Source: Escherichia phage chee24. Taken from it: DNA of 64,000 nucleotides. The DNA lies in sequence record NC_047885.1; one strand, written 5' to 3'. A model generated the notes under the pieces. That model saw only the letters and a list, made by a program, of their open reading frames with translations, did not search any database and was not told the DNA's origin. Shown here in pieces: positions 3,235 through 64,000 of the stretch (the first letter of the stretch is position 1; every line of letters begins with the position of its first letter). A program made the position numbers and the translations under genes.

Positions 3235-6024
3235 GTGTTTTCAATCCTACAAGGTCATGCAGGATTTCATCGCGATTTAGCCACAGGCAATTGGCGAGAA
3301 GTTAAAGCAGAAGATTATCTTTTTGCTAAAAGATTTTCCTCAAAGCATCCTGAAGGTAAACCAGCTTCAATGCCCTTCAAGTTTGATGTAATTGACGAAG
3401 TTGATCCTCAAACCCTAGTAGAAATGCTTCCTCTTATGAGACGTTTAACGTCTGACCCTCATATCGTTGCGGTACGAGGTCGATGTCTTGCACCTAAAAA
3501 TAATGTGCGACGTAAGAAGGGCAACTTTAATGTATCTAATCCAAGTCATATAATCGCAATGGATGTGGATGGTATTGTAGATACAGGAGGTTGTAACAAG
3601 TTTGATCTTGTTGGCATGGCGCGTCATATTATTAGGATGTTGAATAGTATTAGTGAGGATATGTTTCCTCTTGATGCAGGGTTTATTGCTCATGCATCAT
3701 CTTCGGCTGGACTAAAACCAGGTATCCGAATGCACTTAATACTAGAATCTAATGTTAAAGTTACACAGGGCCAGATCAAGTTCTTATTTACATCTATCAA
3801 CGAAAGTAGTAGACAAAAGTATGGTTTTGATATTGCCGACTTAGCTTATTACTCTTCCGTACAGCTCCACTATTTTGCAGATCCTTTATTTACTGATGGT
3901 ATAGTTGATCCGTTTAAAGCGGAGAGTGCTTCACGTCTGGTATTTGTTAAAGGCTCAAAAGTAAATTTACCTAATAATCTAGTTGACTATGAAACAACTA
4001 GAGGAGAGTTTAAAGAGGAATTCTACTCTTTACTCGATCAAATTAAAGGTAAAAAAGCTGCCTCTGATAAAGTAGAGGAAACTATCAGTGAGCTAGAAGA
4101 GGCTGATGATGGGGTATACTTACGTATTATTCCAAAGCTATATCACCGAGCGTTAGAGGATGGGGTAGATTTTGGTTGGCTAGAGAAAGAAATCCGCCCA
4201 GCTTTATCAGAATATATTGCAACTAAAGATAATAGCCGTAATATTCAGGATTATTTCAATAACGGACGGAAGCAGGCATTAAAAGCCTTTGTGAATAACT
4301 CTAAGCGTGAGATCCCTGAAGTATTAAAAGGTATCCCCCTTAAAAAGCTAGAAACTAACTCACTAGAGACCGACAACTTCTTGAAATTAAATACTGTACC
4401 ACCAGAAGGCTATATGACTTTTGTAAAAGCAAGTCTAGGTACAGGTAAAACCACGGCTGTTGTTCGTTGGCTGGATTCAGGGGTTATTAAAGGTAATTTC
4501 TTAGCAATTACCAATACTAGGGCACTAGTGTCTTCAAATGCTAAGAAATTTAGCGCAGGTCAATATGATAAATCTGTAGATATGCTCAACTTTAAACGTG
4601 GGGCTATTGATCGTATGTCCACAACCATTCACTCTTTGCATAAGTTTAAGAGTTTTATTGGTCAAATTGATGCAATCTTTATAGATGAATGTGATGCAGT
4701 AATGAATGACCTATTATTCGCCCCGGTTGTTAAGCAACGTCGCGAGTGTATTCAGGTTCTTCGAGATATTCTTGCAACTGCAAAAATAATTATATTATCT
4801 GATGGAGATATTAGTGCAGAAACAATTGAAGCATATGGTTCTTTGATTGAGTTTGATAAACCAGTTGCATTTTACAATCACCACCGTAAAATGTTATCAA
4901 AGGCTCATGCTTATGAGTTTCCTGATGAATCCAGTATTTGGGTTGCACTTCAAACATCACTAGAGATGGGTGAGAAATCTATTCTAGTATCTGATTGTGG
5001 CCCTGATGAGCTGAATGAGAAGGGTATGGCACTACGTCGTAATACTGGTGCGTTAGTTAAGGAAATCCATTCAAACTCTACCTCAGATGTGGATATTCGA
5101 CGTATTCTGGATTATACAACTAATGAGCTAATTGATCAACAAATTGATTGCTTATTATGTAGTCCATCCGTAACGAGTGGTGTTGACTTCAACTATTTTG
5201 ATAACGTATTCGTTATTACTAGAACCAGTAATCAAGCGCCAAACATGCGTTTTCAAGCAATCAGGCGCGACCGTGGTGCTCAGAACATCTATTATTTTAT
5301 TGATAAATCCACTAGTGGATTCTCCGCAGGTTCTGAACAATATAATATTGATGAAGGTTGGCTGGAGTTAGCACAGCAATTATACGCACGTCGCAGGGAG
5401 CTGGAATCTAGAAACTATACTAGTACCTTACGTTATTACTTGCTTGATCAGGGTGCAACTATTGATATTTTCAGCGAAAGCTGGGGAACTATTGAAGGTG
5501 CTGGTAAAGAGTACACAGAAGAGCGAATCAAAGCTATTCTACATTCAACCCCGGATTATTGTGCTCCACGTCATGCGGATGCGTATGAAGCTAAACTACT
5601 TCTTGTTCGCTATTATCATCTTGAGTCTATTAAAGATGTAACAGTTGAGCATGTTGAACAATATATCAAAGATAAACCGAATGATCGAGCTGCATTCTTC
5701 CATAAGATGCACGAGATGTTCTGGGAAGATATTAAGAAGTGTTCAAATATAACCATTAAACCATTCATAGAAGCTCTAAAAGGTAAGAAAAAGGACTTCT
5801 TCCTTAAAACAGGTCAGAGTGCTAACCCAAAATATGCTAGAATGTATCTTGGTATGATGGGTATCGGTAAGGATATGAACACTGAAAATATCGTAGACTG
5901 GTATAGAACCTACTGCAAAATCGAGTGTATGCCAATTCCTTATAAGTTCATGACTGATGAGGAAAAACATATGCACGATGAAGCAATGTCAGAACTAGGT
6001 GCTAGAAATGACAGTGAAGAATAA
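3235..6024 (+). CDS. replication protein: AEP primase-polymerase-like N-terminal domain fused to a P-loop helicase/ATPase (origin-binding-protein-like)
   Basis: Longest ORF begins at TTG 3157; the likelier start is GTG 3235 (AGGAG 7 nt upstream). N-terminal HIIAMDVDG (AEP DxD-like) and AHASSSAGLKPGIRMH; Walker A SLGTGKTT and Walker B IFIDECDAV mid-protein. Confidence 0.6.
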   Translation: MFSILQGHAGFHRDLATGNWREVKAEDYLFAKRFSSKHPEGKPASMPFKFDVIDEVDPQTLVEMLPLMRRLTSDPHIVAVRGRCLAPKNNVRRKKGNFNVSNPSHIIAMDVDGIVDTGGCNKFDLVGMARHIIRMLNSISEDMFPLDAGFIAHASSSAGLKPGIRMHLILESNVKVTQGQIKFLFTSINESSRQKYGFDIADLAYYSSVQLHYFADPLFTDGIVDPFKAESASRLVFVKGSKVNLPNNLVDYETTRGEFKEEFYSLLDQIKGKKAASDKVEETISELEEADDGVYLRIIPKLYHRALEDGVDFGWLEKEIRPALSEYIATKDNSRNIQDYFNNGRKQALKAFVNNSKREIPEVLKGIPLKKLETNSLETDNFLKLNTVPPEGYMTFVKASLGTGKTTAVVRWLDSGVIKGNFLAITNTRALVSSNAKKFSAGQYDKSVDMLNFKRGAIDRMSTTIHSLHKFKSFIGQIDAIFIDECDAVMNDLLFAPVVKQRRECIQVLRDILATAKIIILSDGDISAETIEAYGSLIEFDKPVAFYNHHRKMLSKAHAYEFPDESSIWVALQTSLEMGEKSILVSDCGPDELNEKGMALRRNTGALVKEIHSNSTSDVDIRRILDYTTNELIDQQIDCLLCSPSVTSGVDFNYFDNVFVITRTSNQAPNMRFQAIRRDRGAQNIYYFIDKSTSGFSAGSEQYNIDEGWLELAQQLYARRRELESRNYTSTLRYYLLDQGATIDIFSESWGTIEGAGKEYTEERIKAILHSTPDYCAPRHADAYEAKLLLVRYYHLESIKDVTVEHVEQYIKDKPNDRAAFFHKMHEMFWEDIKKCSNITIKPFIEALKGKKKDFFLKTGQSANPKYARMYLGMMGIGKDMNTENIVDWYRTYCKIECMPIPYKFMTDEEKHMHDEAMSELGARNDSEE

Positions 6025-6241
6025 AAAATGGGAAACAAGGAAGTTTCCAGTGAAAGAGCGTAAAGTTCCTGTTTATGATACTTCGGAAAAGCTATGTAGG
6101 GTGGTACCACATAGATTAGCTGGTATCCCTAACATATCCGAGTGGTTACTTAAACAACGGAGGACTAACGTATCTCTTCGCATAGGGTTTGAGTTAGATA
6201 AAGTATATGCTGAACTTTCTTCTTTGCTCAAGGAATCGTAA
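6008..6241 (+). CDS. hypothetical small basic protein
   Basis: ATG at 6008 preceded by AGGTG; overlaps the 3' end of the upstream gene; lysine/arginine-rich; ends just before the PN25-like promoter. Confidence 0.3.
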   Translation: MTVKNKKWETRKFPVKERKVPVYDTSEKLCRVVPHRLAGIPNISEWLLKQRRTNVSLRIGFELDKVYAELSSLLKES

Positions 6242-6249
6242 AAATTTAT

Positions 6250-6278
6250 TTGCTTTCAGGAAAATTTTTCTGTATAAT
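6250..6278 (+). promoter_or_regulatory. strong early promoter, T5 PN25-like
   Basis: AAAATTTATTTGCTTTCAGGAAAATTTTTCTGTATAATAGATTCATAAATTTGAGAGAGGAG: AT-rich UP, -35 TTGCTT, 17-nt spacer, TG + TATAAT; matches the PN25 promoter as I recall it. Confidence 0.75.
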
Positions 6279-7772: not shown

Positions 7773-7808
7773 TTTTTAGATAAATCCACCAACAAAAGGA
7801 ACACAGTT

Positions 7809-8105
7809 ATGACCAAAGCTGAAATTATCGCACAATGTGAAAAATTTGGTGAGTTTTATCTTCATTACGAGAAACTTCGTCAGAAAGGAACCACGTACCT
7901 TCAGGGTACGATGGAATTTGATCCAGCCCAAGATAAATATCTGGCTGAGCGTATTAAACGTGAACGTATTCGTAAAGCGAAAGATGATGAAATCCTTGTC
8001 TTCTCTCGTACTAATGATAGTTTCCGTTTTATTCCTGTCGAGAAAGTCCGTCGTGTGACTAGCCTCCAATCAGAGTTAGATCGTGCTTCTCCAGTAGGCC
8101 GATAA
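7809..8105 (+). CDS. hypothetical protein
   Basis: 98 aa; RBS AAGGA; followed by a rho-independent terminator at 8116-8137. Confidence 0.5.
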   Translation: MTKAEIIAQCEKFGEFYLHYEKLRQKGTTYLQGTMEFDPAQDKYLAERIKRERIRKAKDDEILVFSRTNDSFRFIPVEKVRRVTSLQSELDRASPVGR

Positions 8106-8750: not shown

Positions 8751-9714
8751 TGTAAAAGGCTTTATTAAGCGTTGTCAAGAAGCATATTATCAGGGTATGT
8801 CTTTAATCTCTGATGAGGAGTATGATTGCCTGGTAAAACGCTTCCCGTTAGAAGAAGAGATCGGGCCTAAGGGTGATATTCCACATCTGTATCGTATGTA
8901 TTCTTTACAGAAAGTTTATTATAATCGTGGAGATAAACCCCCGTTTAACCCGTTAGGTCAAGTAGAAACTGATAAGTTAGATGGTTGTGCAATTTCTCTG
9001 CTATATATTAATGGCGAATTTGTTCAAGCACTAACTCGTGGTAACGGTATTCTGGGAAATGATGTCACAAGCAACGTAAGATTGCTGAACATCCCTAAAA
9101 AGATTTCCCAAAAAGTACCTACTCAAATCACTGGTGAAGTTCTAATTACAAAAGAAGTAGAAAATAAACGTAATTTTGCCTCTGGCGCTATTAACCTCAA
9201 AGATAGTGATGATTTCGTACAACGCATTGGAGAAGGCGGTTTAATCTTTGTTGCTTACGGTATCCAATGTTCTGCTGAATCTGTAGGTATTACAGAAGCA
9301 TATTTAAAAGATATGCTTTGGCTAGAGAATGAGAACTTCTTAACAGTTGTTAATGTGCGTTCCTTTTTTAAATGGATTCCGACGGACGGTAAAGTTGTTC
9401 GTATTAATGACAACAACAAATTCTTCCGTGAAGGCTGGACTAATAAATTCCCTCGTGGAGCATTCGCCATTAAAGAGGATGAAGAAGGCGAGATTACAAC
9501 TCTTACTAAAGTTGAATGGCAGGTAGGGGCTTCTGGTAAAGTAACTCCAGTCGGTTATTTTGAACCAGTAATTATTGATGATGCTACAATTGTTAAAGCG
9601 ACTCTTAATAACGTTGATTATATTAACTCTCTTGATCTAGAGATCGGTTGCCAGATTCGAGTGATTCGTGCTGGTGGTGTAATCCCGTGCATAGTAGAGC
9701 GAGTATACGATTAA
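8740..9714 (+). CDS. NAD-dependent DNA ligase, N-terminal subunit (adenylation and OB domains)
   Basis: Block KLDGCAISLLYINGEFVQALTRGNGILGNDVTSNVR aligns with the bacterial LigA KxDG adenylation motif region; OB-fold-like C-terminus (IRVIRAGGVIPCIVE). Confidence 0.85.
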   Translation: MMNNVKGFIKRCQEAYYQGMSLISDEEYDCLVKRFPLEEEIGPKGDIPHLYRMYSLQKVYYNRGDKPPFNPLGQVETDKLDGCAISLLYINGEFVQALTRGNGILGNDVTSNVRLLNIPKKISQKVPTQITGEVLITKEVENKRNFASGAINLKDSDDFVQRIGEGGLIFVAYGIQCSAESVGITEAYLKDMLWLENENFLTVVNVRSFFKWIPTDGKVVRINDNNKFFREGWTNKFPRGAFAIKEDEEGEITTLTKVEWQVGASGKVTPVGYFEPVIIDDATIVKATLNNVDYINSLDLEIGCQIRVIRAGGVIPCIVERVYD

Positions 9715-9916: not shown

Positions 9917-10696
9917 ATGAAAATCGAAATTCCAACACAATGTCCCTCTTGTGGTTCTAAGCTAGATCTTGTCAACGGACAATTATTCTGTCGTAATAAG
10001 TCCAACTGTCCAGCGCAATCAAGTAAGTTAATTGAGAACTTCTGTACAAAAATGAAGTTAAAGGGCTTTGGCCCAAAAACTATTGAGAAGCTGGAGCTGA
10101 CGAAGATTTCAGAACTATTTTACCTAACCGAAGAAGATTTGGTTAGAGCCGTGGGTAGCAAGGTTGCCGCTAAGTTAATTAGCGAATTAAATAATAAAGT
10201 TCGCGGAGACATTGACTTTGGTTCAGTTCTCGGTTCTTTAGGAATCCCTCTAATCGGAGAGGTTGCAGCAAAGAAATTGTCCCAAAATTGCACCAGTTTT
10301 CAAGATGTGAGAGCTGATGGCAGAGCTGGAGAAAATTATAAAGCCTGGCTAAATTCCCCACAAGGCAAGGATGTTATCGAATTACCGTGGAAATTCACAA
10401 CTGGTATTAAAGGTGCTAAAGCTGAGGTCATCATCACTGATGGTCTAGTAGCCCAACCAAACGGAATAACGGTATGTATTACCGGATCTTTGCAAGATTT
10501 TGCAAATAGAACGGATGCAACAAACTATTTAGAAGGTCTAGGATATACGGTTAAGAAATCCGTTACCAAAGACGTCAAATACCTAATCTGTGAGGATGAA
10601 TCGAAGCGTTCTTCCTCATCTTATAAGAAAGCCGAAACGAATGGGATAGAAATCCTGTCGATTAAAGAACTATTGGAGAAAAATAATAATGTCTAA
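9917..10696 (+). CDS. NAD-dependent DNA ligase, C-terminal subunit (Zn finger, HhH, BRCT)
   Basis: CPSCGSKLDLVNGQLFCRNKSNCPAQ matches the LigA Cys4 zinc finger; GFGPKTIEKL helix-hairpin-helix; BRCT-like C-terminus (ITGSL...ILSIKELLE). ATG at 9917 with RBS AAGGAAG. Confidence 0.8.
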   Translation: MKIEIPTQCPSCGSKLDLVNGQLFCRNKSNCPAQSSKLIENFCTKMKLKGFGPKTIEKLELTKISELFYLTEEDLVRAVGSKVAAKLISELNNKVRGDIDFGSVLGSLGIPLIGEVAAKKLSQNCTSFQDVRADGRAGENYKAWLNSPQGKDVIELPWKFTTGIKGAKAEVIITDGLVAQPNGITVCITGSLQDFANRTDATNYLEGLGYTVKKSVTKDVKYLICEDESKRSSSSYKKAETNGIEILSIKELLEKNNNV

Positions 10697-55605: not shown

Positions 55606-57270
55606 TTACGCGAAAAATTTACCGTTTTTAAAGTCGATCAAAGTGCGCTGACCGTTTGCATAGGTAATAACATGCGTTTGCGTCCAGCTTGACGCGCCAA
55701 CGTTGTAACCCATGTCCAGACTACCAGACACGCCAGCGGTGTATACGCCGCCGTAAATGCTGGCGGTATGAGTGTGCCCCGTGTTTAATTTGCCCAATTT
55801 CTTAAACTGTTTCGGATTGCCACGGCTCCCGTTTATGCCATTGTGACCGTGTACGCCGCATTCAATACCTGCAATCTTGAAAGATTGATCAGTGGTCAGA
55901 AAAATGGCGTTAAATTCACAACCTGCAACCTTGCGCAGCGCATAATCTAGCACGTTGAAAGTATCGTCATGATCACCGATTGCCGCGTAAATTGCAGCAT
56001 TTAGGCGGTGATATAGTTCCGCGTTTGCTGGATCGTCTTTAATGTTAGCATTACGATCATCTAACCAGCGGGATAGCGCCAGATCATGATTAGACTCAAC
56101 AATGATTGTTTGCGAAAAATCGCGCTCCATTGACTCCAGCACGCGACCGGTATCGATAAGATCATCCAGAACTTTATCACGTCCGGCGGCATACTGTTTT
56201 GCTAGGAATACACCCGAAGCGCGGTTGTGATGGTTGCGTGATGTAAAGTCGTGAACGTCATGGATAAACTGATATTTTGGTTTAAGAATATCAAGCAAGC
56301 TATTTTCGCCAGCCCATGACGCAACGGCGCAAGCGTCATCCAATTTTTCGGCGTGTACGTCGCCATATTGTAAACCTAAAACGTGCCCCGTTGTTTCATA
56401 ACATCCGGCGGGAGTGGCGCAAACATTCAGATCATAAAACACCCCGCTTTCGTCCATTGTTTCAAGCTGGCGCACAAAAAACTCACCGTCTTCGTCGAAC
56501 TCAACAATCAGCGCCCCGAAATTATGCAGTGCTTCCGCTTTCTGTCCTGCTTTCTGCTGAATGTAGTTTTTAAGCGTTGCCGTTCCGGTTGAATACATAC
56601 GGCGCACAATTTCACCTTTTAAAGCTGGAACGCTTTCGGCGGTAATTTTTGCCGCTCCAATTGCCAGACCTTCGATATTTAAAGCCGTTGCAGTTTCTGC
56701 AAATCCAGAAAGCGGATAATCTGCGGTTGGCAAAACATTAATTTCAGCCATGAAAGCAAAGCGGCGGTTATTTAAAAACACGTTTTTGCTGCAAATATAT
56801 TTATCGAACGCGGAATCATATTTGATTCCGTCGGCGCCCTCGCCATTTTGAAAACCGTTTTTATTATAAATATACTTGCTAACTAGCAAATCAGCACCAA
56901 TAAATTGGGCGTATTGTTCAAGCGAGGCTAAAAAGTTTTTATGAGGGAACGTATTATTCTGAATCGATGTAATAATAAAGCGTTTACCCTGCTTTACTTC
57001 CCATTGTTCAACCGTGCTAGAAACAATCCCCGCCGCTTCTGGGCGCTCATCGTTTTTAATGGCTTTTGCTACTTTCGCCGCTTTCGGTTTCGCTGGTTTA
57101 TTTGCTTCCAGCCAATCGCAAATTGCGGTGGAGTGTTTTGTTGTATCATAAACCGCTTTAGAAATATCGTCGCACACTTCCAGCTTAGTAGCGCGCAGGC
57201 GTTTACCGTAGAAATTGAAATCAGCGGCCATTTTCAGGATAACGGTTTGTTTTTCTGCGGAAATAACCAT
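55606..57270 (-). CDS. A1-like pre-early protein with calcineurin-like metallophosphatase motifs
   Basis: 554 aa; metallophosphoesterase motifs LQYGDVHAE, IVESNHD and GHTHTASIYGG; size and context match T5 A1 as I remember it. Confidence 0.65.
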   Translation of the reverse strand: MVISAEKQTVILKMAADFNFYGKRLRATKLEVCDDISKAVYDTTKHSTAICDWLEANKPAKPKAAKVAKAIKNDERPEAAGIVSSTVEQWEVKQGKRFIITSIQNNTFPHKNFLASLEQYAQFIGADLLVSKYIYNKNGFQNGEGADGIKYDSAFDKYICSKNVFLNNRRFAFMAEINVLPTADYPLSGFAETATALNIEGLAIGAAKITAESVPALKGEIVRRMYSTGTATLKNYIQQKAGQKAEALHNFGALIVEFDEDGEFFVRQLETMDESGVFYDLNVCATPAGCYETTGHVLGLQYGDVHAEKLDDACAVASWAGENSLLDILKPKYQFIHDVHDFTSRNHHNRASGVFLAKQYAAGRDKVLDDLIDTGRVLESMERDFSQTIIVESNHDLALSRWLDDRNANIKDDPANAELYHRLNAAIYAAIGDHDDTFNVLDYALRKVAGCEFNAIFLTTDQSFKIAGIECGVHGHNGINGSRGNPKQFKKLGKLNTGHTHTASIYGGVYTAGVSGSLDMGYNVGASSWTQTHVITYANGQRTLIDFKNGKFFA

Positions 57271-57623: not shown

Positions 57624-58031
57624 TTATTCGCCTGCGGCTTGTTTTACTTCATCGGCAACGCCTAACAGTTGCGCCACGGCGTCCAGCGTTTCTAATTTTG
57701 CGCTTTCCAGCGATGCCAGATCGTCGGCGTCTTTGATAATGCCGGAATCAATAGCATGTTTAGCGATAACGCGCACATAGTGAGCCTTACGAATTGAACT
57801 GCCGCCGCCAACTTTGCGCGGCTTATCGCTTTTCTGGTACGCTTTTGCGCTGGTCAATTTTGAGCGAACAGACACGGGAGAAGCCGCACCAACTGTTTTT
57901 GCGATCTCTTTCAGGCCGTCGCTGTTGGCGAACTCCAAGCCGTTTTCATTGATCAACTGTTGATACATGGTAACAGCCTGCTGGGTGTTTTCTTCATTCC
58001 AAGAGAATTTTGCGGTTTTAGCGTTAGTCAT
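57624..58031 (-). CDS. hypothetical pre-early protein (A2 position in T5-like phages)
   Basis: 135 aa immediately upstream (- strand) of the A1-like gene; GC-rich codon usage; identification as A2 is by synteny only. Confidence 0.45.
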   Translation of the reverse strand: MTNAKTAKFSWNEENTQQAVTMYQQLINENGLEFANSDGLKEIAKTVGAASPVSVRSKLTSAKAYQKSDKPRKVGGGSSIRKAHYVRVIAKHAIDSGIIKDADDLASLESAKLETLDAVAQLLGVADEVKQAAGE

Positions 58032-58813: not shown

Positions 58814-58968
58814 TCCACGCCCTCCAGTGCATACAGACCTTTACCATCATTACAGAATACAACCGCTTCTGAATGGTTGGCGTGATATTCGTTTGCCGCT
58901 TTTACCCATTGCTCGATCTTTTCGATCGTGTCATGGGTTGCTGGATGATCGTTATATATTGTTTGCAT
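58810..58968 (-). CDS. hypothetical small protein (52 aa)
   Basis: Not in the ORF track. ATG with AAGGA 9 nt upstream; translation MQTIYNDHPATHDTIEKIEQWVKAANEYHANHSEAVVFCNDGKGLYALEGVE; coupled to 58610..58813. Confidence 0.3.
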   Translation of the reverse strand: MQTIYNDHPATHDTIEKIEQWVKAANEYHANHSEAVVFCNDGKGLYALEGVE

Positions 58969-59763
58969 ATCTGCGATTCCTTATAATGAATAAGTTTACC
59001 GCCGATAGACTTTAAGATATACCCAATTTTTAAAGAGCGCGGCGGTAAACTTCCCGCCGTGTAGTTCGTCATTGCCGCCCTACGTGATAAATAATAGGGT
59101 ATTCCCGAAAATGGCGCAACCTTATTTTTGTAAAGAAACGTAAAGAAAGCAACACGTTCGGCGCTCACCTAAGTTTAAAGGAAACGGGCGCGCGAATACC
59201 ATAAAACCAAGCAGATAGGCAAGTAATTTTTTCATTTATATTTGCCTTGCCCTACTTGACAAAATCTAAAAAGCTCGTGGTAGCGATAAACGGCTTATCC
59301 CCTTATGATGGGATGGCTAAAAACTTCATCGCGTTCTAGGACGTTTTAGGCGCATTCTAGCCTTGTTGATAACTTATCCCCAAAAGCAAAAATGAAATTT
59401 TCCTAGTTATCCACTTGACTTTTATTTTCCAGTGGATAACTACTTATTTTATAAAATTAATTAATTGACTTTTATTTGTTAGTGTGTATCGGAAAGATAG
59501 CAGACTAATAATTGTTAGGATTATAATCATGCTGGTGGATTGTAACAGCCTGAACTATTAGCAGACTATTAATCTCGGAAAATCTCATTAGCCAACTAAC
59601 TATTTCATATTATATAATATACATATAAATTAATGAGAAATAATAATTATAAGAAATCGTAACCGATAGAAATAATAACTACAAAAATAATCACCGTTAT
59701 AATAATAACGATAAGAAACTATCGGCCTAAGTGAGAACCACTATCATTTAAGTTATTCACAAA

Positions 59764-59833
59764 GTTATCCACAGCACAAAATGATTTGACACGATAGGCG
59801 GCGATATAAGGACTTATCCACAGACTTATCCAC
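59764..59833 (+). promoter_or_regulatory. cluster of three consensus DnaA boxes (TTATCCACA)
   Basis: Perfect 9-mers at about 59764, 59813 and 59825; further near-matches TTATCCACT / AGTGGATAA as an inverted pair at about 59407 and 59431. Confidence 0.5.
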
Positions 59834-59841
59834 ATGTTATC

Positions 59842-59861
59842 CTACTGTATATTTATACAGG
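59842..59861. promoter_or_regulatory. LexA (SOS) box-like palindrome
   Basis: TACTGTATATTTATACAGGG fits CTGT-N8-ACAG with AT-rich spacer; immediately downstream of the DnaA boxes. Confidence 0.45.
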
Positions 59862-60126
59862 GTAAAAAGGTAGTGTTAACAACTGCAATCAATTTTAAGC
59901 GGCCTAAAACGCTTTCTAACGAGCAAAACGCTATAGGGTAATATTAAAGTAAAGCCTCAACGCGTCGCCCTGGTGACTTCGCCGTGTTTTGCTCTTTACT
60001 ATACCGCTGCGCGTTTAACATAAAAATAAGCGTTAGGCAAGGAAAATAAAAAGGTAAAATAATATTTGCCCCTAGAAAGAAAATACCTTTATCATTCACT
60101 CACCGATTAACGAGGGAGGCCAACAA

Positions 60127-61119
60127 ATGCGGCTATATAAACCAGATAACGCAACCGTCTTAAAAGGTGCGTTGCGTAACCTGCTGGATGGTAGCAGAAC
60201 AACCAGCATTAAACATTTTGTTTTCAATATTGAAACACTTCATCGTAATTTTCTTGATGATTACGATGCTTATAATATGAATAGTTTTCTACCGTTATAT
60301 AATCAAGGGGCAACGCTTGTTTTATATAATCAGGAATCTCACTTGCTTACTAGTCGAGGGCCAGATACTGATTTTATTATAGTGAAAGGCAGTACAGTAA
60401 AAGCCTATGATGCGGGGGCGGGCTTAGAAGTTTTCACGATAGAAAATTATGAGCCTTATGATAAGGATCTTTATGACGTAGAAAATTTTCTCGATTCATT
60501 TTGGCGTTATTTATCAATTGGGTGGAATCGATCAGATTATCACGGGTATCGTTTTGCGGCTATAATGGCTTTTGATGATAACGGTAATTTTTTGCTACCG
60601 TCGGAATTATACCCGTATGTATATAATGATTTAATAGAGGAGGCTGGTTTTACTTTCTGGAAAGATGAAGATCAGCCTATTGACAACACGGAAAAACATG
60701 CTGTAAATTCTAACACTCAAAGCGTTAACACTCAAATTACTGAAAACAAAGGAAAAAATACCATGACCAAGATCGCTAATATCGTTGCCGCCAATAAGTC
60801 TGCTGTTGTAAATGCTGCAAAACTGGAAGCGGGTAAAATTGCATTAACTCAAATCACGAAAGTAGCGGCTAAAAAAGCGCCGTTTATGATTAAAGGTTAT
60901 ATTGATACGCCGATTGGTCGGGTAGTTATTGCCAACCTGCTGAGCGTAGCGGTTGACCAGTACGCCCCAGCTAACCAGAAAGCGAAAGCGGTAGCAGGTG
61001 CAGCTATGGAAGCGGCTATGTTAGAAATGGTGCAAAGTTTTAACATCGCTGAAATGATCGATGAAATGGTGAAAGGTATTGATATTTCTACTTTTACCAC
61101 TAGCACCGAAAGCGAGTAA
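60127..61119 (+). CDS. hypothetical protein (330 aa)
   Basis: Strong RBS GAGGGAGG before the ATG; first gene of the + strand operon leaving the DnaA/LexA-box control region; Ala/Lys-rich helical C-terminal third; no motifs recognised. Confidence 0.6.
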   Translation: MRLYKPDNATVLKGALRNLLDGSRTTSIKHFVFNIETLHRNFLDDYDAYNMNSFLPLYNQGATLVLYNQESHLLTSRGPDTDFIIVKGSTVKAYDAGAGLEVFTIENYEPYDKDLYDVENFLDSFWRYLSIGWNRSDYHGYRFAAIMAFDDNGNFLLPSELYPYVYNDLIEEAGFTFWKDEDQPIDNTEKHAVNSNTQSVNTQITENKGKNTMTKIANIVAANKSAVVNAAKLEAGKIALTQITKVAAKKAPFMIKGYIDTPIGRVVIANLLSVAVDQYAPANQKAKAVAGAAMEAAMLEMVQSFNIAEMIDEMVKGIDISTFTTSTESE

Positions 61120-61128
61120 TAATATTAA

Positions 61129-61150
61129 GCGGGGATTGTTACCCCGCTTT
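61129..61150 (+). terminator. putative terminator
   Basis: GCGGGG-ATTGTTA-CCCCGC followed by TTT ACTATT; weak U-tract. Confidence 0.45.
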
Positions 61151-61183
61151 ACTATTCCCTTGTTAATTAATAGGAGGCTAATT

Positions 61184-61678
61184 ATGCCAGAAGAAAAATA
61201 TGGCTTCTCACTGGGAGAAGTGAGTACGGCTAAACATGATATGATTGTTTTAGTCGATTGCCATACCGGTTATTGCGGGGAAGGGAATACTGAGGAATAT
61301 TTTGTTCCTGCTGGTACGGATCTCGACGCTTTCGCCCATGAAATGGCTGTTGATAATGCTTCTCGTTTTGGTAGCGATGGTTACGAAGACGAAGAAACGG
61401 GCGATTGGTATGAGAATGATAATGTATATGCAAGCCTTTATCATTATCAATTAAGTAAATCCGGCACATATGTAAACGGCGGTGATCCTATTAATTCCGT
61501 CATGAAATTAATTATTAAATATGGCGGCGTCGAGATAGTCGATAACAAAGCGGTAATATATGCAAACCGATTAAAACAGCTTGTTTATATCCCTGATAGT
61601 ACCCGATGGGAGGAATATGCTGTTTTGCATGATGAATTAAAACGATGTTTCAATATTGAAACCTTACAAGTAGTTTAA
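61184..61678 (+). CDS. hypothetical acidic protein (164 aa)
   Basis: ATG at 61184 with RBS TAGGAGG (track ORF starts at 61079); followed by a rho-independent terminator. Confidence 0.55.
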   Translation: MPEEKYGFSLGEVSTAKHDMIVLVDCHTGYCGEGNTEEYFVPAGTDLDAFAHEMAVDNASRFGSDGYEDEETGDWYENDNVYASLYHYQLSKSGTYVNGGDPINSVMKLIIKYGGVEIVDNKAVIYANRLKQLVYIPDSTRWEEYAVLHDELKRCFNIETLQVV

Positions 61679-61693
61679 TGTAAAGTTTTGTAA

Positions 61694-61722
61694 AGGCCGC
61701 CTCTTATGGTGGCCTTTTTTGT
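61694..61722 (+). terminator. rho-independent terminator
   Basis: AGGCCGCC-TCTTAT-GGTGGCCT followed by TTTTTTTG. Confidence 0.6.
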
Positions 61723-61786
61723 TATAATGCCTTTACACCGTTTAAGGACGGTTGAAAATTTTCCCAAAAAATTTTGGAGGCTTATA

Positions 61787-62017
61787 ATGGTTGCTTATTC
61801 TTCTTCTGACGCTCTTTTCACTGGAAAAGGCTGGGTATCAAATCGCTGGATCATTCAAGAAATGGTGCAAGAATATGGCATTGCTAAAACTTACACTACC
61901 ATTCAGGCGCTTTATGATAATGATCAAATTGATCAGCAAACGGCGGGCTTTTTGCTGGATACCCTAAAAGCGGAACACTGCACCAAAAAACAAGCTGCAA
62001 AAATTGTTTTAATGTAA
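61787..62017 (+). CDS. hypothetical protein (76 aa)
   Basis: ATG at 61787 with RBS GGAGG (track ORF starts at 61706, inside the terminator). Confidence 0.45.
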   Translation: MVAYSSSDALFTGKGWVSNRWIIQEMVQEYGIAKTYTTIQALYDNDQIDQQTAGFLLDTLKAEHCTKKQAAKIVLM

Positions 62018-62064
62018 TTAATAAAGGGGGATACTATATCCCCCACTAACTAGAGAGAATAAAA

Positions 62065-62211
62065 ATGGTTATTTTTCGAGCTATTCTAGCAGGTATCTTG
62101 GGCGCTATTTTATCACTTTTTGCAATAGCTTTCGGCGTTCACGCGGTTATTATTGGCGCGGGGATTGCCGTTTTTTCTTATCTGCTGGGCTGCATGAATA
62201 AAGGAGAATAA
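62065..62211 (+). CDS. small membrane protein (48 aa, two hydrophobic segments)
   Basis: Not in the ORF track. Translation MVIFRAILAGILGAILSLFAIAFGVHAVIIGAGIAVFSYLLGCMNKGE; stop closely followed by the RBS of the next gene. Confidence 0.35.
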   Translation: MVIFRAILAGILGAILSLFAIAFGVHAVIIGAGIAVFSYLLGCMNKGE

Positions 62212-62213
62212 AA

Positions 62214-62426
62214 ATGATCCGCAACGTTTCCCTTGCCCGCTCCAAAGGCTTTAAGCTGGTGGACGTTAACACGTTTGAGCGGGAGGATTGTAAAATCGAA
62301 TATGTAGCACGCAACAAAAATGCCTTTCGTGTTACAGAAAAGAAATTTGACAAGCGCGGCAACGTGATCGCTGAAACGGTTAAACACTTTGCCACCTTTT
62401 ACGCTGCGTTTCGTGGGGTGTTATAA
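62214..62426 (+). CDS. hypothetical protein (70 aa)
   Basis: RBS AAAGGAG 8 nt before the ATG. Confidence 0.45.
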   Translation: MIRNVSLARSKGFKLVDVNTFEREDCKIEYVARNKNAFRVTEKKFDKRGNVIAETVKHFATFYAAFRGVL

Positions 62427-62427
62427 A

Positions 62428-62772
62428 ATGGTTATTTATGAGGGCAATCGTTTTGTTGCTAATTGCCGTCCGGCATTACTAGCAAACTATTTAAATCAGG
62501 TTTCACCTGAATATAAAGGCGTCATTAATATTTACGAGGGTAAGGCGCACTATAAAATTAATGCGGTCGTTGCCCGTGAATTAGCATTTCAATTTTTGAC
62601 CTTTGCATCTTGTGACGTTCAGGTTATGGGTGAAGCATTAATTGCAGAAAATGAAGATGATTTTATTAATATTTTCCGCAAGATATGCACCGAGCGCCTG
62701 ATCATGAAAGGCGCATATATTCAATCCACTGCGGATAGCATTGAAACAGCGTTTCGAAAGGTGGCGCAATGA
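62428..62772 (+). CDS. hypothetical protein (114 aa)
   Basis: ATG at 62428 directly after the stop of the previous gene (track ORF starts at 62389). Confidence 0.5.
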   Translation: MVIYEGNRFVANCRPALLANYLNQVSPEYKGVINIYEGKAHYKINAVVARELAFQFLTFASCDVQVMGEALIAENEDDFINIFRKICTERLIMKGAYIQSTADSIETAFRKVAQ

Positions 62773-62927
62773 AAAAGTTTTTAATAGCTGGTATGTTTCC
62801 TTTGTTGCCTTATGTAATTTGCTGGGCTTTATACGCTCATGGTGCTAGTGTTCCCGGTGTGGCCTCGTTTGGTGTATCGGCTGGTTTTCTAACCGGACTA
62901 TTGGCAAGCGTATATCTGCGCAAATAA
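62769..62927 (+). CDS. small membrane protein (52 aa)
   Basis: Not in the ORF track. ATGA overlap with the upstream stop; translation MKKFLIAGMFPLLPYVICWALYAHGASVPGVASFGVSAGFLTGLLASVYLRK. Confidence 0.35.
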   Translation: MKKFLIAGMFPLLPYVICWALYAHGASVPGVASFGVSAGFLTGLLASVYLRK

Positions 62928-62945
62928 TTAATAACGGGAGTTATT

Positions 62946-63140
62946 ATGAGCAATAAAATTGTTGTAACCAAAATCAGTACAATGGTTGACGTTTTTTATG
63001 TGCCCGATACGCCGGAAAACCGGCAAGCGGTCGAGCGTGGCGAGTATGATAAAGTGATTTATGATCACGATGGTTACTATCAACATTTGGTGGATTCCTA
63101 CGGGGAGGGGGAAAAAATCACGCATCGACTACCAGACTAG
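62946..63140 (+). CDS. hypothetical protein (64 aa)
   Basis: RBS GGGAG; last ORF before the repeat-rich non-coding region. Confidence 0.45.
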   Translation: MSNKIVVTKISTMVDVFYVPDTPENRQAVERGEYDKVIYDHDGYYQHLVDSYGEGEKITHRLPD

Positions 63141-63180
63141 TAATCACGGGGGCGCAACTACCAGGGAGTGCCCCCAATTC

Positions 63181-63205
63181 TCAAATGAGAATGATTCTCA
63201 TTTGA
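63181..63205. repeat. 25-bp near-perfect palindrome TCAAATGAGAATGATTCTCATTTGA
   Basis: 12-bp arms around one central base; arm sequence AATGAGAAT recurs in the tandem repeats at 63520-63715 and in the element at 53955-54000. Confidence 0.6.
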
Positions 63206-63397
63206 CCGCGCCCGCGATGGTTAGCCTGCTAATGATTAGGGTGTTACGTGTCGCCTTGTGTGATCGTTAGCAGGCTAACTAATTTTTAAGCCTCCTCCAA
63301 TTTTGCCCTTGTTTTAGTATCCCCATCAAAATTAAACGCGTTAGAATGCGATTCAGGACGTTTTAGGCCTATATTAGAATTATTCACTACATAGGAG

Positions 63398-63417
63398 TAC
63401 TGTATATTTATACAGTA
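63398..63417. promoter_or_regulatory. LexA (SOS) box-like palindrome
   Basis: TACTGTATATTTATACAGTA: one mismatch to the E. coli LexA consensus TACTGTATATATATACAGTA as I recall it. Confidence 0.45.
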
Positions 63418-63425
63418 GAATAACC

Positions 63426-63508
63426 TGGGGATAAGTCTGTGGATAACGCCTCAAAATGGCTAGGATTCTGTCAAGTCAAATCGTGCTGTTGATAAGTCTG
63501 TGGATAAC
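63426..63508 (-). promoter_or_regulatory. DnaA boxes in inverted orientation
   Basis: Two copies of GATAAGTCTGTGGATAAC (reverse complement contains TTATCCACA) at about 63429 and 63491; the 18-mer TTATCCACAGACTTATCC is shared with 59813-59830 in opposite orientation. Confidence 0.45.
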
Positions 63509-63519
63509 TTAAATAACAG

Positions 63520-63715
63520 TGTTTCTCACTTCCATTTTTAAATGCGAATCATTATCATTTGCATTTCACTGTCTAACTGATAATCATTTCACTTTTTAAA
63601 TGAGAATCATTTCACTTTTTGAATAGTTCTCATTCCGCTTTTTAAATGAGAATAATTATCATTCGCATTTCACTTTTTAAATGAGATTGATTCTCATTAT
63701 CATTCGCATTTAGGC
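63520..63715. repeat. tandem direct repeats (core CTTTTTAAATGAGAAT) interleaved with ATTATCATTCGCATTTCACT units
   Basis: Five core copies at about 63535, 63593, 63616 (diverged), 63639 and 63673; three copies of the second unit. Confidence 0.6.
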
Positions 63716-63740
63716 GAGCAGGGCAATTGCCCTGCGCTTT

Positions 63741-63964
63741 TGTGCAAATCCGACATTGCTCCACGGGTGTTACGTGCGGGCGTGTATGTGCGAATCCGAC
63801 AATTTTTGGTAGTGTGCGAATCCGACCCGAAAAATTTTTATAGTGTGCAAATCCGACAATGAATTTTCCCAAAAACTCCAGCAATCTCGAACTGCGTTCG
63901 AATCCTGTGGAATTAGCTAGAATATGTGCAAATCCGACATGTGTTGAGATGTGCGAATCCGACA
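63741..63964 (+). repeat. iteron-like array: six direct copies of TGTGCRAATCCGACA
   Basis: Copies at about 63741, 63787, 63813, 63844, 63925 and 63950, all in the same orientation with irregular spacing; array reaches the window end. Confidence 0.65.
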
Positions 63965-64000
63965 AGATTTTTGTGACTTCGATTGGAGGGTGTGTGATTG

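Follow-up and report, generated by a model that had tools for sequence, protein, structure and literature searches.

Inverted arms carrying DnaA boxes and LexA-like palindromes flank the pre-early gene block in the terminal repeat of the T5-like Escherichia phage chee24

We analysed a 64,000-nt stretch of DNA from Escherichia phage chee24 (NC_047885.1), in which a block of rightward pre-early genes is bracketed by two inverted copies of a composite element, here called arms. The whole stretch, from record position 56623 to the genome end, is referred to as the window. The arms are the inverted repeat C-spacer-inverted repeat D (IRC-spacer-IRD) and IRD'-spacer-IRC' elements of the terminal-repeat first-step-transfer (FST) DNA of T5-like phages, and both carry DnaA boxes together with a LexA-like palindrome. 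Both the inverted repeats and their DnaA boxes have been annotated and published before, and the finding itself is therefore known; what apparently remains as novelty, with uncertain priority, is the putative LexA identity of the element called palindrome D in T5 and its family-wide conservation. The best overall explanation, to which we give an even chance, would be that the arms are landing pads for host factors tied to first-step DNA transfer.

Anatomy of the arms and their counterparts in T5

The gapless inverted repeat covers 132 nt (59729-59860 against 63400-63531) with 78% identity and, when small indels are allowed, extends to about 193 nt (59729-59921 against the reverse complement of 63339-63531). 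The extended repeat gave a local alignment score of 81, compared with 12.7 +/- 1.8 (maximum 22) in 300 dinucleotide shuffles. Since the arms align without gaps, the spacing of their sites is the same in both. A preliminary description of this DNA, made from the sequence alone, had proposed that the plus-strand block 60127-63140 is flanked by inverted copies of a roughly 50-bp composite element. The inverted composite copies are indeed present, but the element is larger than described, and the alignment that it suggested shows the arms to share 132-193 nt, far beyond the DnaA and LexA cores. The 18-mer, the LexA-like palindrome, the second DnaA-box copy and the shared motif that it listed were all found in their places. 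Thus, the 18-mer TTATCCACAGACTTATCC lies at 59814-59831, with its reverse complement at 63429-63446 and a 17/18 copy at about 63490-63507, while CTGTATATTTATACAG occurs at 59845-59860 and 63400-63415. The latter 16-mer reads identically on the plus strand, so that the palindrome does have a second copy, but its 2-nt asymmetric centre is not inverted, as had been supposed. The core of the AGGACGTTTTAGGC motif, GCCTAAAACG, has three perfect copies, and these fall in this region as well. No Rfam family scored above threshold within 58900-64000.

The DnaA boxes form head-to-tail pairs in both arms, starting at 59753/59765, 59814/59826, 63426/63438 and 63487/63499, each with a 3-bp gap, which is the eight-box arrangement of the T5 type; the degenerate box TTATCCTAC at 59838 overlaps the left LexA-like box. 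We scanned for perfect TTATCCACA sites as well as for TTWTNCACA. All five perfect TTATCCACA sites of the window were located inside the arms, against 0.63 expected, and none of 100 shuffles reached five. The same five are the only perfect sites in the whole genome, for which the counts refer to the 110.6-kb non-redundant sequence.

Consensus DnaA boxes clustered at fixed spacing are a hallmark of oriC-type and plasmid origins such as P1 oriR, and clusters of this kind are present here, so that the boxes might constitute, or derive from, a DnaA-dependent replication origin. The preliminary description had named symmetric operator or origin sites as one of its three readings; symmetric sites for host-factor binding are the best supported of the three, whereas the origin part seems very improbable to us. 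The likeness to oriC, datA, DARS and P1 oriR consists of several consensus 9-mers (TTATCCACA or TTWTNCACA) in fixed head-to-tail arrays. The array of oriC, though, has an 11-bp period, while those studied here have a 12-bp period, show no evident unwinding element and occur as two mirror copies 3.5 kb apart. By eye, no AT-rich unwinding element with 13-mer-like repeats was evident beside the boxes, and a LexA box is not a component of an origin. Although the comparison with oriC has been made before (10.1101/866236), the same work places the mapped T5 origins near the middle of the genome and points out that the replication genes are not yet in the cell at first-step transfer.

Each arm ends, on the side facing the block, in a LexA-like box. 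When the sequence was scored against the 20-nt LexA consensus (TACTGTATATATATACAGTA; CTGT-N8-ACAG) with at most three mismatches, two sites were obtained in the window, both in the arms, against 0.01 expected, and these two are also the sole near-consensus LexA sites in the genome. Both boxes have the palindrome, the A/T-rich spacer and the consensus match of a LexA operator. Compared with the LexA operators (SOS boxes) of Gammaproteobacteria, they match at 19/20 and 17/20 positions with a perfect CTGT-N8-ACAG and an A/T-only spacer, and they are kept in phages of Escherichia, Salmonella, Klebsiella, Pectobacterium, Proteus and Vibrio, and binding of LexA is thus predicted. Classical SOS boxes overlap the promoter of an SOS gene, whereas the present boxes belong to a virulent phage, share no promoter and abut DnaA boxes.

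The correspondence to T5 is direct. The T5 record AY587007 annotates inverted repeats C (6022-6060), D (6112-6152), D' (9332-9372) and C' (9424-9462), as well as B, B' and the 20-nt palindrome D (9330-9349) at homologous positions. The resulting T5 elements, IRC-spacer-IRD (6022-6152) and IRD'-spacer-IRC' (9332-9462), are the same element as the arms in position, in size (131-132 bp), in the paired boxes and in the neighbourhood of the 7.9% point, with allelic differences only; there are five perfect boxes here and fewer in T5. As in T5, two inverted copies of about 131 bp lie in a long terminal repeat and flank rightward pre-early genes. Furthermore, Davison in 2020 (bioRxiv 10.1101/866236) described both 131-bp elements, IRC-spacer-IRD and IRD'-spacer-IRC', from 25 T5-like phages, reporting eight DnaA or DnaA-like boxes, two per arm end, with 3 bp between paired boxes and a constant spacer, as well as distances and genes between the repeats that vary among phages, and crediting the first DnaA-box observation to a 1987 paper. 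The preliminary description missed this identity with the described injection-stop repeat system of T5. The T5 literature that we consulted treats palindrome D as a plain palindrome without mention of LexA, and the text of Davison (10.1101/866236) does not mention LexA, SOS or a promoter. The literature searched gave no link between T5-type phages and a LexA or SOS box, although Davison 2015, Wang 2005 and Heusterspreute 1987 could hold one.

The coordinates of the arms, their sites and the surrounding features are collected in Table 1. The region studied is the right terminal repeat, of which an identical copy forms the left genome end; T5-like phages, for instance MF431732 ('pork29', Tequintavirus), contain bases 59000-64000 with 100% identity as part of their long terminal repeat. 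The annotated neighbours of the block are A2, A1, dmp and hypothetical proteins.

Table 1. Features of the repeat system in the window
Feature	Coordinates	Strand	Remarks
Left arm	59729..59860	+	T5 'inverted repeat C - spacer - inverted repeat D'; found in all 29 relatives
Right arm	63400..63531	-	T5 'inverted repeat D' - spacer - inverted repeat C''; better conserved copy
Outer DnaA pair, left arm	59753..59773	+	TTATTCACA 59753-59761, TTATCCACA 59765-59773; head to tail, 3-bp gap
TTGACA hexamer, left-arm spacer	59786..59791	+	invariant in 58/58 arms
Inner DnaA array, left arm	59814..59846	+	TTATCCACA 59814, TTATCCACA 59826, degenerate TTATCCTAC 59838; 12-bp period
Left LexA-like box TACTGTATATTTATACAGGG	59843..59862	.	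17/20 to consensus; perfect CTGT-N8-ACAG core
Right LexA-like box TACTGTATATTTATACAGTA	63398..63417	.	19/20 to consensus; T5 'palindrome D'
Inner DnaA array, right arm	63415..63446	-	TTATTCTAC 63415-63423, TTATCCCCA 63426-63434, TTATCCACA 63438-63446
Outer DnaA pair, right arm	63487..63507	-	TTATCAACA 63487-63495, TTATCCACA 63499-63507
AGGACGTTTTAGGC motif	59338..59351	+	T5 'inverted repeat B'; partner of the 59902 copy
GCCTAAAACG motif, third inverted core copy	59902..59911	+	part of T5 'inverted repeat B''; within gapped extension of left arm
AGGACGTTTTAGGC motif	63355..63368	+	within gapped inner extension of right arm
Rightward pre-early accessory block, eight ORFs	60127..63140	+	all 8 match PHROG families
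Long hairpin (17-nt arms) followed by T run, likely block terminator	63220..63290	+	T5 terminator (palindrome C) at equivalent place
Direct repeats and palindromes of injection-stop region	63532..63715	+	T5 annotation and Davison description
A2, essential pre-early gene	57624-58031	-	left of repeat system
A1, essential pre-early gene	55606-57270	-	left of repeat system

Outside the right arm lies the injection-stop region. Its direct-repeat families (labelled D1-D5 and D8 here) begin at 63527, adjoining the right arm, and the nominal 7.9% FST point falls, by arithmetic, at about 63561, so that the right arm lies 30 bp inside it. Thus, as in T5, the right copy adjoins the DRC/DRE/DRD repeats and the 7.9% boundary. 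Several 20-28-nt units with the palindrome AAATGAGAATSATTCTCATTT, corresponding to T5 direct repeats C/E and palindromes E-I, were observed at 63175-63203 and 63527-63712, that is, just outside the right arm and, in one case, in the 3' flank of the block. These units are poorly conserved (mean identity 0.69) and look like sites for a dimeric protein. At 63718-63735, a perfect hairpin rich in G+C, GCAGGGCAATTGCCCTGC, precedes GCTTTTG; its T5 counterpart is palindrome J, which overlaps the annotated major 7.9% single-strand nick. Finally, six copies of TGTGCRAATCCGAC (T5 direct repeat D) are found at 63741-63963, in the last 260 bp before the terminal-repeat and genome end, and might be packaging or end-recognition sites; T5 has more copies of direct repeat D past the repeat boundary. 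On the other side of the repeat system, a second DnaA-like group, corresponding to T5 'repeat region 1', occupies 59366-59484 to the left of the left arm, with the inverted pair AGTTATCCACT and AGTGGATAACT (59404-59442), TTGATAACTTATCCCC at 59366, and TTGACTTTTATTT at 59415 and 59465.

Conservation of the arms among relatives

The comparison was based on 29 distinct genomes gathered through the A2 protein, of which 27 belong to Tequintavirus or Epseptimavirus, giving 58 arms in total; a second scan of IMG/VR, by alignment of the first protein of the block, returned the same genomes again and left this diversity unchanged. Both arms were present in the same relative orientation in every one of the 29 genomes. 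Across the 27 closer genomes, mean pairwise identity was 0.93 for the right arm and 0.86 for the left arm, compared with 0.87 for the coding DNA of A2 and 0.88 for that of A1. The non-coding right arm is thus more tightly constrained than even the essential genes A1 and A2. The left and right arms are no more alike within a genome (0.743) than between genomes (0.740). This equality rules out concerted evolution or gene conversion of the arms, and selection must therefore keep each arm. The right arm gave no match among 72,556 plasmids, a search that did not extend to bacterial genomes.

None of the 29 genomes has lost the LexA palindrome from either arm, and each has at least one perfect CTGT-N8-ACAG. 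Its two central nucleotides are AA or TT in all 58 arms and never AT or TA, with TT in 4 of 29 left arms and 11 of 29 right arms, and the two states are scattered over genomes and arms. This pattern looks like recurrent flipping of the palindrome centre, for example by template switching, rather than point mutation. Because AA and TT flip freely across the relatives, the orientation of the centre is uninformative.

The boxes also persist at a greater distance. Six relatives whose A2 is 40-65% identical (Klebsiella phage Sugarland, Eos, Pectobacterium phage My1, Proteus phage 2, Vibrio D36 and Vibrio Pontus) carry canonical LexA and TTATCCACA boxes on both sides of a block next to A2, where other non-coding DNA is hardly or not alignable. 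The arrangement is shared even by a Vibrio relative with an A2 only about 40% identical, and the boxes of Pontus are once more arranged as an inverted repeat, with 3.9 kb between them. In addition, a second type of composite was observed in My1 (about 7775-7810) and Pontus (704-745), consisting of a TTATCCACA box abutting a LexA-like CTGTATA...ATACAT and then CTAAAAC. The likeness of CTAAAAC to GCCTAAAACG hints that this short motif, too, may be deeply conserved.

This persistence bears on the possibility that a phage protein, such as dimeric A2 or an A1-A2 complex, recognises the palindrome and the repeated TTATNNACAG units, whose likeness to LexA and DnaA sites would then be no more than a resemblance. 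A2 is indeed a dimeric DNA-binding protein required for second-step transfer, the region is rich in other palindromes that are not host-factor sites, and the box positions most important for DnaA (5-7) vary among the phages. We nevertheless consider this explanation improbable. The right box matches the LexA consensus at 19 of 20 positions, and the LexA and DnaA consensus is kept where A2 is about 40% identical and the flanking DNA is unalignable, although a protein and its site should drift together. Recognition of the LexA and DnaA motifs is common across Gammaproteobacteria, and since these motifs stay constant there, persistence of the boxes fits host-protein sites better than sites that co-evolve with a phage protein. 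Furthermore, the first-step stop takes place without phage protein synthesis.

The gene block between the arms

The proteins of all eight open reading frames (ORFs) of the block match PHROG families. The fifth ORF (62214-62426) falls into the same family as the T5 endonuclease which introduces nicks at abasic sites generated by host Ung, whereas the other seven belong to families without known function. Three of the ORFs, at 62065-62211, 62769-62927 and 62946-63140 (48, 52 and 64 aa), are unannotated in MF431732 and gave PHROG matches with E = 1e-30 to 1e-42; the 48-aa and 52-aa products are hydrophobic, membrane-like peptides. The block had been described as an eight-gene operon. The eight genes were borne out, but a terminator-like hairpin (61692-61717) and a promoter-like TTCCCA-16-TATAAT (61761-61788) are located between the second and third genes and match an annotated terminator and the promoter T5P5 of T5. 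Since T5 has the equivalent terminator and promoter, the block probably forms two transcription units rather than a single operon. The likely block terminator at 63220-63290 precedes the right arm, which therefore lies outside the block transcript. A palindromic TTTCAATATTGAAA(CA) occurs twice in the block, at 60222-60237 near the start of the first gene and at 61646-61661 near the end of the second.

We then considered the arms as transcriptional boundary or regulatory elements, in which LexA and DnaA would act as operators or orientation-dependent roadblocks, either shielding the accessory operon from both the essential leftward A2-A1-dmp operon and early transcription directed leftward, or making part of pre-early transcription SOS-responsive. 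The arms lie exactly at both borders of the rightward block, outside its promoter-like sites and its terminator, and their mirror layout shows the same face to RNA polymerase leaving or entering the block at either border. DnaA-box complexes are said to have been found by Schaefer and Messer in 1988-89 to block transcription in an orientation-dependent manner. Moreover, by eye, many Tequintavirus left arms have TTAACA-16 nt-TATATT on the minus strand across the LexA box, and a third LexA box in Vibrio D36 overlaps a TTACAG-17 nt-TATATT element directed at A2. Despite these points, a boundary function seems unlikely to us. The LexA boxes are about 200 bp upstream of the promoter-like sites of the block and are therefore not operators for it, and the block has its own terminator ahead of the right arm. 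Neither the consensus scan nor reading of the alignment gave a promoter-like element common to both arms: the scan yielded no more than a weak candidate on the minus strand, whose -35 hexamer falls in the right box, and the left-arm candidate, recognised by eye in just some of the relatives, has no counterpart in the right arm and is not conserved in T5- and Epseptimavirus-type arms. The invariant TTGACA of the spacer has no -10 partner at 16-18 nt, and the consensus promoter scan called nothing there. Finally, repression by LexA of genes that are needed in the first minutes seems counter-productive.

The content of the block varies among relatives, as the preliminary description had suggested checking. 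In the 29 genomes, the arms are separated by 1590 to 4060 bp, with variable gene content and only some genes constant. Of some 530 phage records that bear the arms, about 35 were inspected for orientation. The block genes are directed away from A2 in each of the 27 Tequintavirus and Epseptimavirus genomes, whereas Sugarland-type genomes have the homologues of the first two block genes on the opposite strand with the order of transcription kept, and the main operon is likewise inverted in My1 and Eos. The Vibrio and Proteus relatives show the T5-type orientation, and that form is therefore probably ancestral. The T5-type junction was found in 287 records with at least 80% query coverage. About 80 records of Klebsiella phages contain the Sugarland-type junction with an identity of at least 90%; among the matches listed for this second query, phages of Escherichia and Salmonella cover only about one quarter to one half of it.

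One end-point of the inversion can be placed at an arm, since window positions 63313-63445, comprising the inner right arm and 87 nt of its inner flank, match Sugarland 6043-5910 on the opposite strand, beside the left arm of Sugarland. A reciprocal flank match was not detected in this comparison, and two or three small rightward ORFs still stand beside the right arm in the inverted lineages. Hence, no single clean arm-to-arm flip took place, or later changes followed it, and a clean arm-to-arm inversion in Sugarland, My1 and Eos is supported only in part. The Sugarland arms (6203-6266 and 10160-10223) are 91% alike over 64 nt, compared with 78% in T5-type phages, and this high likeness may be a trace of block-inverting recombination.

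These observations allow the arms to be weighed as a recombination substrate, that is, as part of an invertible or exchangeable cassette system for accessory pre-early genes, another reading of the preliminary description. In its favour, block content varies while the arms stay constant, the main operon is inverted in some lineages with one end-point at an arm, and the Sugarland arms are alike to the degree just given. Even so, we regard such a function as quite improbable. The inverted form is seemingly fixed in one clade, the arms share only 74-78% identity and bear no trace of gene conversion, the right arm is far more conserved than homology for recombination would need, and the rightward ORFs left beside it in the inverted lineages do not fit. 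The eight block proteins matched no PHROG family annotated as transposase, invertase or recombinase. The Mu G, P1 C and Salmonella hin segments are similar in that a block lies between inverted repeats and both orientations occur among relatives, but the present system lacks an invertase gene, its arms are long with only about 78% identity, and orientation is fixed by clade, the second one being seen only in distant clades. Of this reading, what stands is a rare evolutionary event: the inversion appears to have occurred at least once and to have been fixed in a clade, and not to be a switch.

The third reading, the footprint of a cassette-like insertion, found no support. A transposon or cassette with terminal inverted repeats is rejected on the lack of any transposase or recombinase family hit and on the outer flanks (…TCGGCCT before the left arm and CCATTTTTA after the right arm), which show no target-site duplication; in addition, the arrangement is old, being shared with a Vibrio phage.

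The arms as putative host-factor sites in first-step transfer

We thus return to the explanation that the arms are landing pads for host factors tied to first-step transfer. Each arm would be a pad of fixed geometry, in which two head-to-tail DnaA pairs, separated by about 40 bp, are joined by a degenerate third box and, on the side of the block, by a near-consensus LexA operator, and we infer that DnaA and LexA bind to it. The first-step stop of T5 is independent of phage protein synthesis, which leaves only proteins of the host or the virion as trans-acting factors. LexA and the partly membrane-bound DnaA could load on the arms as these enter the cell, and the resulting nucleoprotein complex may anchor or organise the FST DNA. 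The conserved right arm, just inside the 7.9% point, would be part of the injection-stop signal and the essential copy, whereas the less constrained left arm, between two divergent pre-early transcription units, would be an auxiliary copy. The mirror symmetry would bring the arms into register when the DNA folds back, and inversion of the block would be a by-product of the inverted arrangement, not its function.

The DnaA part of this explanation has a precedent in the proposal that membrane-bound DnaA holds the boxes, so that injection stops after the first 7.9% of the genome (10.1101/866236). Later papers repeat this proposal and call it experimentally untested. The same preprint cites old data on two FST fragment sizes, of about 9.6 and 5.8 kb, which are close to the two arms.

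Several points weigh against a role of the arms in the stop. Many of the DnaA boxes are non-consensus, and half-sites of the LexA palindrome are changed in a few arms (ACAA in 4 left arms and CTGG in 2 right arms). The left arm is 3.5 kb from the stop point, and some phages are said to lack it altogether (10.1101/866236). The copy in the window belongs to the right terminal repeat, which enters last, and a stop role is therefore conceivable only for the identical left copy. It is also not obvious how cytoplasm-bound proteins could halt an ejection driven by capsid pressure, and a paper on BF23 states that experimental studies of these sites are lacking.

More tentatively, and with rather less confidence than in landing pads as such, we suggest that LexA may be an unrecognised host factor for the FST DNA of T5-like phages. 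Its putative operator is fused to a DnaA array and kept at both borders of the block across Demerecviridae. Occupancy of the operator, and its loss when A1-driven breakdown of host DNA activates RecA, might time or gate FST events. If this is true, the gated events would be anchoring, release for second-step transfer or pre-early transcription.

The stop of T5 injection after 8% of the genome and its later restart have been an open problem since the 1960s, and the cis-acting stop signal has never been defined experimentally. The comparative results sharpen this problem, since the right arm is more constrained than A1 and A2 and what the family as a whole conserves is a pair of motifs for host proteins. 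In addition, the arms delimit a region of accessory host-takeover genes that is variable and, in some lineages, inverted, which is useful for the annotation and engineering of T5-like phages. The putative LexA identity of the palindrome would offer a cheap experimental handle on two-step injection, through host mutants and phages with mutated boxes.

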